A program made the translations under genes and the position numbers. A model generated the notes under the pieces. It had not been told where the DNA came from and made no database searches. It worked only from the letters and a program-made list of their open reading frames with translations. This document shows, one piece after another, positions 3,843 to 47,555 of a stretch of 64,000 nt of DNA. Position 1 is the first letter of the stretch. Each line of letters starts with the position of its first letter. Source of the stretch: Escherichia coli (lineage in GTDB: Bacteria > Pseudomonadota > Gammaproteobacteria > Enterobacterales > Enterobacteriaceae); assembly GCF_024700885.2 (NCBI RefSeq), contig NZ_CP117016.1; one strand, given 5' to 3'.

Positions 3843-4475
3843 ATGGGGCTTTGTAGTCGTTATAAAAGTCTTACATGCAATAGTTGCTCAATGCATTGCC
3901 AAATAATGCCAGAAGAGTCACCGCGTTTGCAGTATTGCGCAAACTCGTGTTTTTGTATGTGGCCCGAAGAAAGTTCATATTTTAATCGTGGTGTGGTGGA
4001 AGGTATCTTAACAAAAAACCACAATGCGAGATTAAGCGGATATATTTTTGTCGATTTTTCAGTAAGTTTTTTACGTCTATTCCTTGAAAAAGACTGGATT
4101 GACTATCTTGCAAGTACTGACATGGGGATTGTTTTAGTCAGCGACCGAAATATGCAATCGTTAGCTAACTACTGGCGAAAACACAACTCTGCAATATCTG
4201 CTGTCATATATAATGATGATGGTCTTGATGTTGCCAATGAAAAGATCAGACAACTATTTATTGGTCGTTATTTATCATTTACCAGAGGGAACACATTAAC
4301 TCAGATGGAATTCACCATAATGGGATATATGGTTTCTGGTTATAATCCATATCAGATTGCTGAAGTTCTGGATATGGATATCCGTAGCATCTACGCGTAC
4401 AAGCAACGAATCGAAAAGAGAATGGGTGGTAAAATAAACGAGTTATTTATTCGTTCACATTCGGTCCAACATTGA
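3843..4475 (+). CDS. yqeH: LuxR-family transcriptional regulator (ETT2-island remnant)
   Basis: ORF-track ORF 3783..4475 begins at TTG; the ATG at 3843 (MGLCSRYKSL...) gives 210 aa; C-terminal helix-turn-helix region of LuxR/GerE type (NTLTQMEFTIMGYMVSGYNPYQIAEVLDMDIRSIYAYKQRIEKRM); AT-rich codon usage. Confidence 0.8.
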   Translation: MGLCSRYKSLTCNSCSMHCQIMPEESPRLQYCANSCFCMWPEESSYFNRGVVEGILTKNHNARLSGYIFVDFSVSFLRLFLEKDWIDYLASTDMGIVLVSDRNMQSLANYWRKHNSAISAVIYNDDGLDVANEKIRQLFIGRYLSFTRGNTLTQMEFTIMGYMVSGYNPYQIAEVLDMDIRSIYAYKQRIEKRMGGKINELFIRSHSVQH

Positions 4476-4508
4476 TACTCAATAATCTGCCAGAATCATA
4501 CTCTGCTT

Positions 4509-4540
4509 ATACGGGCATCTATTGAAATGCCCGTATTTTA
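4509..4540 (+). terminator. rho-independent terminator after yqeH
   Basis: 10-bp perfect stem ATACGGGCAT / ATGCCCGTAT with an 8-nt loop, followed by TTTTAC. Confidence 0.6.
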
Positions 4541-4688
4541 CAAATAAGCAGTACCCCCAAGAGTAAACAACATGGTATTTAAAACCATCACACGAAAAAT
4601 TCAGAAGCATTACGAAATATGAATTTACAAACAGGTGATGCTGCCAACTTACTGATTTAGTGTATGATGGTGTTTTTGAGGTGCTCCA

Positions 4689-4964
4689 GTGGCTTCTGTT
4701 TCTATCAGCTGTCCCTCCTGTTCAGCTACTGACGGGGTGGTGCGTAACGGCAAAAGCACCGCCGGACATCAGCGCTATCTCTGCTCTCACTGCCGTAAAA
4801 CATGGCAACTGCAGTTCACTTACACCGCTTCTCAACCCGGTACGCACCAGAAAATCATTGATATGGCCATGAATGGCGTTGGATGCCGGGCAACTGCCCG
4901 CATTATGGGCGTTGGCCTCAACACGATTTTACGTCACTTAAAAAACTCAGGCCGCAGTCGGTAA
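4689..4964 (+). CDS. insA: IS1 InsA (transposition repressor)
   Basis: 91-aa [40 protein letters not shown]... recognised as IS1 InsA; GTG start. Confidence 0.95.
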
Positions 4965-5386
4965 CCTCGCGCATACAGCCGGGCAGTGACGTCATCGTCT
5001 GCGCGGAAATGGACGAACAGTGGGGCTATGTCGGGGCTAAATCGCGCCAGCGCTGGCTGTTTTACGCGTATGACAGTCTCCGGAAGACGGTTGTTGCGCA
5101 CGTATTCGGTGAACGCACTATGGCGACGCTGGGGCGTCTTATGAGCCTGCTGTCACCCTTTGACGTGGTGATATGGATGACGGATGGCTGGCCGCTGTAT
5201 GAATCCCGCCTGAAGGGAAAGCTGCACGTAATCAGCAAGCGATATACGCAGCGAATTGAGCGGCATAACCTGAATCTGAGGCAGCACCTGGCACGGCTGG
5301 GACGGAAGTCGCTGTCGTTCTCAAAATCGGTGGAGCTGCATGACAAAGTCATCGGGCATTATCTGAACATAAAACACTATCAATAA
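4883..5386 (+). CDS. insB: IS1 InsB frame; the transposase InsAB' is made by a -1 frameshift at the TTAAAAAACTC motif near 4936-4946
   Basis: 167-aa ORF matching InsB; A6C slippery motif present in the insA/insB overlap. Confidence 0.9.
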
Positions 5387-5638
5387 GTTGGAGTCATTAC
5401 CCAGTCTGTCGATGACATTACAATGCCAGGATGGGCTTTATCTTCACGTTGTGCTATCGCGGTGTGAGAGGTGCAACTGCCGCCAACGTTAGGTTATACT
5501 GTCATCTCACCGTGTAACTTAACGTGACAGTTACTAAGGGCGGATCACAATGGTAGAACTCCTAAGCAAATTAAATAGGTAACTGTTTAAGTTGCTGACA
5601 GAGAAGACTTTTTTGGTCTTCTCCACCTGGGGAGATTC

Positions 5639-5712
5639 TGGAGCGGGCGAAGGGAATCGAACCCTCGTATAGAGCTTGGGAAGCTCTCGTTCTACCATTG
5701 AACTACGCCCGC
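5639..5712 (-). tRNA. glyU: tRNA-Gly (anticodon CCC)
   Basis: Reverse complement reads GCGGGCGTAGTTCAATGGTAGAACGAGAGCTTCCCAAGCTCTATACGAGGGTTCGATTCCCTTCGCCCGCTCCA with encoded CCA. Confidence 0.95.
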
Positions 5713-5790
5713 TTCGAGATGCGTAAGGCATTATAAACCTTACGCTCTCCTTAGCAAGTGCCGCGCTGCTGACTGCTGATTAATTCGCCA

Positions 5791-6567
5791 TCAGCATTTT
5801 GGCTTGCTGCTCTGAGGCGGCAAGTAACGCAGCGGATCAATTGCCGTAGCACGGTAACGAATCTGGAAATGCAGGCGAACCGATGCCGCATCAGTGCTCC
5901 CCATAGTGGCGATTTTTTGCCCAGCCTTCACGCTTTGCCCATTATTTACCAGCATCGTGTCATTATGGGCGTAAGCCGTAATGTAATCTTCACTGTGTTT
6001 AATCATGATGAGATTACCGTAGCCACGCAGCTGGTTGCCCACATACACCACCTTTCCTGCACCCGCGGCGTAAATAGGTGTACCTCGTGGAGCTGAGATA
6101 TCAATCCCTTTATTGCCGCCATCAGCTGTCGAATACGGCATGATAACTTTCCCTGTCGTTGGCCATAACCAACAACGTTGCCCTACTGGCGGCCAGGAAG
6201 ATTTCGGTACTGCTGATGACGGTGTAACCGATGCGGTTTTGGTCGTTGATTTGGCGGTTGATTTACGTGTACTGCTACTTTTCGCCCCACCCAGTTTTAG
6301 TTTCTGACCAACTTCAATGGTGTAAGGGGGGGAAATGCCGTTCAGTCGCGCCAGCTCTTTTACGCTGGTTCCCGTGGTGCGCGAAATACGATATAGCGTA
6401 TCCCCCCGTTTCACGGTGTAAACGGAGCCGGAATACGTTCCTGTATCGGATGATTTGCTACCCGAGCAGCCCGCCAAAAGCAGTCCAACCGATAACAACA
6501 TCACGATACCCAGAGATTTTTTATTCAGGCGTCCCGCACTCAAAATCTTTCCTCGCTTAAAAAACAA
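5791..6567 (-). CDS. ygeR: LysM-domain / M23-family peptidase lipoprotein
   Basis: 258-aa ORF; lipobox LLLAGCSG; LysM motif (YTVKRGDTLYRISRTTGTSVKELARLNGI); M23 peptidase-like C-terminus. Confidence 0.85.
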   Translation of the reverse strand: MFFKRGKILSAGRLNKKSLGIVMLLSVGLLLAGCSGSKSSDTGTYSGSVYTVKRGDTLYRISRTTGTSVKELARLNGISPPYTIEVGQKLKLGGAKSSSTRKSTAKSTTKTASVTPSSAVPKSSWPPVGQRCWLWPTTGKVIMPYSTADGGNKGIDISAPRGTPIYAAGAGKVVYVGNQLRGYGNLIMIKHSEDYITAYAHNDTMLVNNGQSVKAGQKIATMGSTDAASVRLHFQIRYRATAIDPLRYLPPQSSKPKC

Positions 6568-18067: not shown

Positions 18068-18114
18068 CCACTGCCAAGGATCTATACACAATCAAGAATG
18101 ATGAGTGAGGAAAA

Positions 18115-33594: not shown

Positions 33595-34962
33595 ATGTCT
33601 GGAGACATCCTACAAACACCGGACGCACCAAAGCCACAGGGCGCGCTGGATAATTATTTTAAAATTACCGCTCGTGGCAGTACCGTTCGTCAGGAAGTAC
33701 TGGCTGGCTTAACGACCTTTCTGGCCATGGTTTATTCCGTTATCGTCGTTCCGGGAATGCTGGGCAAAGCAGGTTTTCCTCCCGCAGCTGTGTTTGTTGC
33801 CACCTGTCTGGTCGCGGGCTTCGGCTCGTTGCTGATGGGATTATGGGCCAATTTGCCAATGGCGATTGGTTGCGCGATTTCCCTGACGGCGTTTACCGCA
33901 TTCAGTCTGGTACTCGGGCAACAAATTAGCGTTCCTGTCGCACTGGGCGCGGTCTTTCTGATGGGAGTCATCTTCACCGCCATTTCCGTAACCGGTGTGC
34001 GTACCTGGATCTTACGTAATTTACCGATGGGGATCGCTCACGGTACAGGTATCGGTATCGGGCTGTTTCTGCTGCTGATTGCTGCTAACGGTGTGGGAAT
34101 GGTTATCAAAAACCCGATTGAAGGCTTGCCAGTGGCGCTCGGTGCGTTTACCTCCTTCCCGGTGATGATGAGCTTACTAGGGCTGGCGGTCATCTTCGGT
34201 CTGGAGAAGTGTCGCGTACCCGGCGGGATCTTGTTGGTGATTATTGCAATTTCGATCATCGGCTTAATCTTTGACCCAGCGGTGAAGTACCACGGTCTGG
34301 TGGCGATGCCAAGCCTGACTGGCGAAGATGGTAAGTCTCTGATTTTCAGCCTCGATATTATGGGCGCACTCCAGCCAACTGTACTTCCGAGTGTACTGGC
34401 ATTGGTGATGACCGCAGTGTTCGACGCCACTGGCACCATCCGTGCCGTCGCCGGTCAGGCGAATTTGTTGGATAAAGACAACCAGATCATCAACGGCGGC
34501 AAAGCCCTGACCAGTGACTCAGTAAGTTCAATATTCTCCGGCCTGGTGGGCGCAGCGCCCGCAGCGGTTTATATCGAATCAGCGGCAGGAACCGCCGCCG
34601 GGGGTAAAACAGGGTTAACCGCAACCGTAGTGGGGGCGTTATTCCTGCTGATTCTGTTCTTATCACCGCTGTCATTTTTGATCCCTGGTTACGCCACTGC
34701 ACCCGCTCTGATGTACGTAGGTTTGCTGATGTTAAGTAACGTCTCGAAGCTGGATTTCAATGATTTTATTGACGCTATGGCTGGCCTGGTGTGTGCCGTG
34801 TTCATCGTTCTGACTTGTAATATCGTTACCGGTATTATGCTGGGCTTTGTGACACTGGTCGTAGGCCGCGTCTTTGCACGCGAATGGCAAAAGCTGAATA
34901 TTGGTACGGTGATCATTACTGCCGCACTGGTCGCATTTTACGCGGGTGGTTGGGCAATCTAA
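33595..34962 (+). CDS. ghxQ: guanine/hypoxanthine permease (NCS2 family)
   Basis: 455-aa hydrophobic ORF. Confidence 0.85.

Positions 34963-46888: not shown

Positions 46889-47555
<667 letters not shown>

Follow-up and report, generated by a model that had tools for sequence, protein, structure and literature searches.

An IS1-bounded deletion between yqeH and glyU has removed ETT2 and most of a phage-like element in one clone of Escherichia coli

In Escherichia coli, the tRNA gene glyU lies next to ETT2, an AT-rich island of ~30 kb with widespread attrition; EAEC 042, CE10, ST69, and many E. albertii have it intact, and elsewhere it is decayed (PMC11068852, PMC4700944, PMC7058095, PMC2808357). 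In the DNA analyzed here (a stretch of 64,000 nucleotides, called the window below), the interval between the regulator gene yqeH and glyU contains an IS1 and 395 bp of non-coding DNA only: the epr, epa, and eiv secretion genes and the ETT2 regulators are absent from it, and yqeH alone stays. Which DNA has been lost at this place, and did IS1 remove it or arrive after the loss? The features concerned are the following (coordinates of the window).

3843..4475, + strand: yqeH, an intact LuxR-type regulator gene (open reading frame), the last gene left of the deletion
4476..4633, no strand: first 158 bp of the yqeH-yqeI spacer, AT-rich (34% G+C); the left breakpoint follows 4633
4634..5401, + strand: complete IS1 (IS1A type, 768 bp) at the joint of the deletion, without target-site duplication
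4689-4964, + strand: insA, open reading frame of 91 aa
4883-5386, + strand: insB frame, open reading frame of 167 aa, overlapping insA
4940-4946, + strand: A6C slip site AAAAAAC, read from the sequence
5402..5638, no strand: non-coding remnant of 237 bp, the glyU-proximal arm of a phage-like element of ~13 kb; the right breakpoint precedes 5402
5639..5712, - strand: glyU, intact tRNA-Gly(CCC) (ARAGORN; Rfam tRNA, 71.6 bits)
5791..6543, - strand: actS (ygeR), the first core gene right of glyU, unaffected

Elements of the IS1 family are ~768 bp long with imperfect terminal inverted repeats of ~23 bp, and they contain insA and an overlapping insB' frame, read together as the InsAB' transposase after a -1 frameshift at an A6C motif. 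The element of the window has the length of 768 bp and both terminal repeats, with GGTGATGCTGCCAACTTACTGAT at the left (4634-4656) and ...AAGTTGGAGTCATTACC at the right (last base 5401; reverse complement of the right end, GGTAATGACTCCAACTTATTGAT), together with the two frames and the AAAAAAC site. In SMS-3-5 and MLI114, RefSeq annotates the copies of the same element as an IS1A-family transposase with programmed frameshift. The element is the only IS1 copy within the 64-kb window; IS1 copies in LR-50 and PO06101 match it at 100% identity, and the SMS-3-5 copy differs from it by two mismatches. A sequence-only reading of this DNA had placed a complete IS1 at 4634..5401 between yqeH and tRNA-Gly, and every coordinate is correct.

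A simple insertion of IS1 leaves a target-site duplication of 8-9 bp. Here, the 9-mers beside the element, TTACAAACA (4625-4633) and CAGTCTGTC (5402-5410), differ, as that reading had also noticed, and no direct repeat is visible in any register within 12-15 bases on each side. A control copy, in K_EC180, does have an 8-bp duplication. With the 8-9 bp duplication absent, the copy in the window is not a simple insertion; its identity as IS1 is unaffected. The right 9-mer, CAGTCTGTC, with C at both ends, presumably resembles an IS1 target more than the left one does (by a target rule applied to a single site), and this is kept out of the argument.

On either side of the element, no gene is disrupted, yqeH and glyU both being intact. 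The product of yqeH is annotated as WP_001305805.1 in SMS-3-5 and MLI114, and the identical protein occurs in the ETT2-positive genomes ST38, KK19-02, and GN06156; it is the only ETT2-proximal regulator left. A terminator-like hairpin 3' of yqeH is kept (stem 4510-4518/4527-4535 followed by TTTT, read by eye; its T-run is below the threshold of the terminator scan, which left it unflagged), as is a promoter-like match for glyU at 5757-5730. In the Rfam scan, glyU alone is matched, and the 237 bp at 5402..5638 have no Rfam family and no open reading frame of note. Right of glyU follow actS/ygeR and then xdhABC; actS is collinear with all compared genomes, and its native position and orientation anchor the right side. 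The rest of the window, from kduI to serA, is ordinary core chromosome.

The extent of the loss was read against ST38, KK19-02, GN06156, and K-12, the first three being preferred to E. coli B as the more informative references. The left flank is collinear with all four down to ...TTACAAACA, after which those genomes continue with ATAGTGGCAT... towards yqeI. In the ST38 strain (NZ_OZ204848.1, locus L003), the left flank ends between 7463 and 7464 (...GAATTTACAAACA/ATAGTGGCAT...) and the right flank starts between 46763 and 46764 (...GCGTGTGTT/CAGTCTGTCGATG...). The missing DNA thus begins exactly at the IS1 ends, and both flanks are collinear with the undeleted relatives. The distance between the flanks in ETT2-positive strains, the measurement by which a deletion had been proposed to be checked, is 39,300 bp in ST38 (L003) and 40,032 bp in KK19-02. 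In K-12, the left breakpoint lies 10,657 bp from glyU (yqeI to ygeQ with IS2H); the sequence-only reading had given the same content, IS2 included, but its size of ~20 kb was too large. The proposed alignment to K-12 succeeds in part: the left flank and glyU map, but the 237-bp right flank has no match there, so K-12 is the wrong reference for the right breakpoint.

Relative to ST38, two blocks are missing. Of ETT2, 26,587 bp are gone (35.8% G+C, ~33 annotated CDS); this part runs from yqeI to the GH15/ygeQ gene and includes all epr/epa/eiv secretion genes. The other part is 12,713 bp of an inserted element (39.7% G+C), with 14 CDS, among them an integrase, and with the distal att copy. The ~39.3-40.0 kb lost relative to near relatives is therefore two islands, ETT2 and most of a phage-like element, and the deletion of ETT2 next to IS1 that had been proposed from the sequence holds as an IS1-bounded deletion and falls short in extent. 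KK19-02, the closest relative with the right flank (99.5% over 4 kb), carries a full ETT2, and so does GN06156 (26,590 bp from the left breakpoint to glyU), which is the next-nearest genome over 14.4 kb (99.3%).

The missing ETT2 DNA is not elsewhere on the chromosome. A chimeric query was made of 267 bp specific to the right junction and ten 50-bp ETT2 tags (from yqeI, yqeJ, yqeK, ygeG, ygeH, eprH, sctU, sctT, sctN, and sctV) that are identical in the three ETT2-positive relatives. In the chromosomes of MLI114, SMS-3-5, GIMC1405, and WWCOL-236, which all carry the joint of the window, the ten tags match no place beyond the junction, and the ETT2-positive controls show 5-8 places. With the tags absent from the MLI114 chromosome, ETT2 has been lost and not moved, as far as the searched chromosomes go, and the same holds for the other three. 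These absences, and the full ETT2 of the relatives at this very position, bear out the earlier view that the interval is not a simple insertion and that ETT2 is deleted between yqeH and glyU. The five genomes with the joint are also missing from the best 60 matches (down to 99.0% identity) to the sctC-sctN segment of KK19-02. In strain 98232 (NZ_CP173446.1), the query has one match beyond the junction.

With the event, all ETT2 structural genes, the ETT2 regulators downstream of yqeH, and the element with its integrase are gone. In the "complete" ETT2 islands of ST38, KK19-02, and GN06156, the annotation shows the same two defects (at L003 22394-24216, L005 26062-27884, and L015 34525-36347, respectively): the YscQ/EpaO-type gene is frameshifted and the SpaN/EivJ-type gene is split. 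A frameshift in eivJ is already known for ETT2 (PMC4700944). Since these defects are common to the three islands, the one lost here may have been non-functional beforehand.

The second island is recognized from the 237 bp at 5402..5638. This stretch is present in 265 of the 5,426 complete genomes and is 100% identical to L003 46764-47000 in ST38, the end of an integrase/capsid element. There, the element (L003 34051-47022) is ~13 kb long and bounded by a perfect 22-bp direct repeat, TGGAGCGGGCGAAGGGAATCGA (34051-34072 and 47001-47022, 12,950 bp apart), one copy being the 3' end of glyU and the other lying beside a tyrosine integrase. K-12 and GN06156 have the empty site, TAAAT-att-ACCCTCG, and ST38 has the occupied site, TAAAT-att-GGAAACC...element...GATTC-att-ACCCTCG. 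The window reads GATTC followed by glyU, that is, the element side, and has a single att copy, the 3' 22 nt of glyU (5639-5660; TGGAGCGGGCGAAGGGAATCGA on the + strand). The att repeats, tyrosine integrase, and empty site of an integrase-mediated insertion into glyU are thus all found in the relatives, and the window keeps the glyU-side arm with one att, an arm no longer able to excise. The 237-bp "intergenic" stretch by glyU was left as a scar by the loss of a second mobile element, a fact that is missed if the window is aligned to K-12 alone.

In ST38, the integrase of the element matches phrog_1 (PHROGs, E=1.4e-38), and generic PHROGs matches are found to HK97-type major head, tape-measure-like, tail-fibre-like, and replication-initiator-like proteins; 23-bp iterons are present at L003 44136-44274. 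A search of 50,697 phage records gives no match to the element over its whole length. It shares 353 bp (L003 42381-42733, 99.2% identity) with the rV5-like phage Mt1B1_P17, and a non-coding stretch of 46 bp (L003 45034-45079) is common to many myoviruses of 146-150 kb. These phage-shared stretches may reflect a satellite-helper link.

How widespread is the joint? With 120-bp queries, one per IS1 junction, both exact junctions are found, each in one piece, in 5 of 5,426 complete E. coli genomes: MLI114, SMS-3-5, GIMC1405:EC_Lstone01, WWCOL-236, and 98232 (NZ_CP173446.1). With the same queries and genomes, no genome has just one exact junction, as a precursor or intermediate would; the remaining IS1 matches (37 with the left flank, 3 with the right flank) are all IS1 at other positions. 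Nor does any of the 5,426 genomes cover the joint with the flanks united without IS1 (synthetic 128-bp query), so that neither observation named beforehand as contrary to a deletion, a matching direct repeat around IS1 or contiguous flanks without it, was made. The window differs from MLI114 (NZ_CP117013.1, 1054504-1118503, reverse strand) by one mismatch, at window position 18077, and is 99.7-99.8% identical to SMS-3-5 around IS1. Over 14.4 kb right of glyU, the five genomes are ~100% identical to the window, the next genome being at 99.3%, and this identity points to one event in one clone. The number of chromosomal IS1 copies in the five ranges from 1 to 11; in the GIMC1405 chromosome, the IS1 between yqeH and glyU is the sole IS1 match. 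In a published phylogeny (PMC2808357), SMS-3-5 falls within the group that is now named F. The deletion explains precisely why the SMS-3-5/MLI114 clone (phylogroup F) is without ETT2 when its nearest relatives have the complete island, and the two IS1 junctions constitute a single-base marker of that clone.

The locus has other IS1 events. At least eight independent ones occur in the yqeH-yqeI area besides that of the window, namely the K_EC180 insertion and at least seven IS1-bounded deletions, and, in the listed losses in PO06101 (445 bp), the NT1F10 group (11.4 kb), TUM9803 (25.0 kb), and ET896 (25.3 kb), the left ends lie within ~1.1 kb (L003 7065-8160) and the right ends are scattered; the queries started from the flanks of the window itself and linked IS1 copies on the same strand only, which biases the counts and inflates the clustering of left ends. 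The insertion in K_EC180 is a simple one, within the yqeH-yqeI spacer. In LR-50 and FDAARGOS_1248/200112, IS1-bounded deletions end in other variants of the element, and in LR-21-1 the left end is in the middle of ETT2 (eprH). All of these deletions resemble that of the window in having IS1 at the joint, no target duplication, and glyU kept, and their joints lead from the yqeH/yqeI area (from eprH in LR-21-1) to some place further right. Unlike it, they occur in other lineages with other breakpoints and sizes and are independent events. Together, the event in the window and the at least seven further cases are in line with IS1 being one of the main agents of ETT2 attrition.

Two further arrangements near yqeH deserve mention. 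ET896 and TUM9803 (L007, L008 2502-3269) have an identical left junction inside yqeI (…GCATTTGTC/IS1) and different right junctions inside ygeQ. The pair was considered as natural proof of a one-ended deletion and dropped, since the two IS1 copies differ at 9 of 768 positions, leaving a weak analogy only; the shared junction could come from two deletions starting at one ancestral IS1 with later gene conversion, or from repeated insertion at one site. In 2013C-4991 (NZ_CP027355.1, L016 ~4207-6238) and in four genomes related to it, the DNA downstream of yqeH leads after ~300 bp into an IS1, to which an rtcR truncated at its 5' end is joined. In K-12, rtcR lies ~0.5 Mb away; this joint suggests a large IS1-associated inversion or rearrangement.

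We put the probability that the window has an IS1-bounded deletion of ETT2 and the phage-like element at about 95%. The deletion was almost certainly made by IS1, because the two ancestral breakpoint sequences share no homology, an intact IS1 without duplication stands at the joint, and no genome has the joint without IS1. Adjacent deletion, a long-known property of IS1 that results from its intramolecular transposition, is the likeliest route, and as a specific mechanism we hold it to be somewhat better than an even bet. The ancestor of the MLI114/SMS-3-5 clone would have had a complete ETT2 and the ~13-kb element in glyU. IS1 would have inserted into the AT-rich yqeH-yqeI spacer and would next have moved, by intramolecular transposition, to a target inside the element at a distance of 237 bp from glyU. 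The IS1 and its left junction would have been kept, a new right junction formed, and the ~39-40 kb between them discarded as a circle. This circle would have carried away 26.6 kb of ETT2, from yqeI to the GH15/ygeQ gene, and 12.7 kb of the element together with its integrase and distal att. The comparisons show the deletion with its exact endpoints and content, its confinement to one clone, and that ETT2 is missing from the rest of the chromosome; we infer that IS1 is the cause, that the left junction is the original insertion, and that intramolecular transposition rather than recombination made the right one. A precursor with IS1 and a duplication at one junction and the intervening DNA intact does not occur among the 5,426 complete genomes, and with no intermediate genome there the order of events is not observed.

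The same product would result from homologous recombination between two direct IS1 copies, one in the spacer and one 237 bp from glyU, where a RecA-dependent crossover would remove the 39-40 kb and leave a hybrid IS1. This is a tenable second choice, to which we give about half the weight of adjacent deletion: it leaves exactly the observed structure of one intact IS1 with non-matching flanks, the 1 to 11 chromosomal copies show that IS1 has been active in the clone, and the yqeH-yqeI spacer is a repeated IS1 target. It calls, however, for two independent insertions, each without an example among the 5,426 genomes, and hence for two unsampled intermediates when adjacent deletion needs one. A simple IS1 insertion is known in the spacer (K_EC180) but none was found in the element arm, the three other IS1 near the arm being deletion joints. 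The IS1 of the window also has no signs of a chimera and is 100% identical to copies in unrelated strains, an argument of little weight since identical parents would look alike. Adjacent deletion is favoured, too, by the series of IS1-bounded losses at the locus, with left ends clustered and right ends scattered.

Accounts in which IS1 played no part in the loss fare much worse. Most E. coli are without ETT2 or have it in a decayed state (reviews PMC11068852, PMC4700944), and 1,313 of 5,426 complete genomes keep the sctC-sctN core. It has to be considered, then, that the DNA was deleted without IS1, or that the lineage was always without ETT2, and that IS1 arrived later by a simple insertion at the joint; yet such an insertion would have left an 8-9 bp duplication, as in K_EC180, and no genome with the flanks joined without IS1 is found. 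The absence of breakpoint homology makes a spontaneous deletion followed by IS1 insertion unlikely in itself. That the interval formerly held both islands is shown by the 237-bp arm of the element and by the first 158 bp of the spacer, which are intact; ETT2 is present in the nearest relatives. We regard this course of events as highly improbable. Still less credible is an assembly artefact across the IS1 repeat, or an inversion or translocation that moved ETT2 elsewhere. A multi-copy repeat such as IS1 commonly breaks assemblies, and the 2013C-4991 lineage, with IS1 by yqeH joined to truncated rtcR, is an apparent case of a real large rearrangement; but both junctions of the window recur in five complete assemblies, which are independent and come from different laboratories and countries, GIMC1405 has no second chromosomal IS1 to be mis-joined, the right flank has its native position and orientation next to glyU-actS-xdhA, and none of the ten ETT2 tags has a match elsewhere on the chromosome.

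A broader and rather doubtful reading would take the two halves of the locus together: an undescribed family of glyU-integrating, capsid-encoding elements of ~13 kb, possibly satellites of large rV5-like myoviruses, as the source of the 237-bp remnant, and a hot spot for IS1 in the spacer that convergently strips ETT2 and the element. If the hot spot were real, selection against keeping ETT2 and the element would be implied.

With respect to tRNA-integrated satellites (P4-like, PICI, and capsid-forming PICI), the element lost here has in the relatives a tyrosine integrase and a 22-bp att that rebuilds the tRNA 3' end, as well as a capsid gene, a replication-initiator-like gene, iterons, and a size of ~13 kb. 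Unlike those satellites, it survives in the window as just 237 non-coding bases and has no whole-length counterpart in the phage records.

Adjacent deletions by IS1 were reportedly described by Reif and Saedler in 1975 for the gal region. As in such classic cases, the window retains one IS1, with one flank unchanged and the other new; there is no target duplication, and the deletion starts exactly at the IS1 end. Unlike the gal-region cases, the event is natural, spans 39-40 kb, and is fixed in a clone, and its mechanism is inferred, with a product not separable from that of recombination between two IS1 copies.

The attrition of ETT2 is the closest parallel. Deletion bounded by insertion sequences is a textbook route of island loss, and Ren et al. 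in 2004 are said to have reported the mutational attrition of ETT2 next to glyU with a catalogue of its isoforms. Outside that catalogue, we found no description in the literature searched of this yqeH-glyU joint or of the element remnant. The published ETT2 isoforms consulted have right-end deletions of 5-9 kb and a 1.3-kb transposase insertion in ygeH. As in other instances (PMC11068852, PMC3977695, PMC4700944, PMC7058095), the locus is the same and so is the trend of decay and deletion seen in most E. coli, in which K-12 also takes part with its 10.7-kb remnant containing IS2. Unlike in those, the loss in the window is total from yqeI onwards, IS1 stands at the joint, and most of a second, unrelated island is gone. 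No new kind of element or mechanism is revealed: the locus adds a further example to a familiar class of events, brought about with a known element, and belongs to ordinary IS-driven genome erosion.
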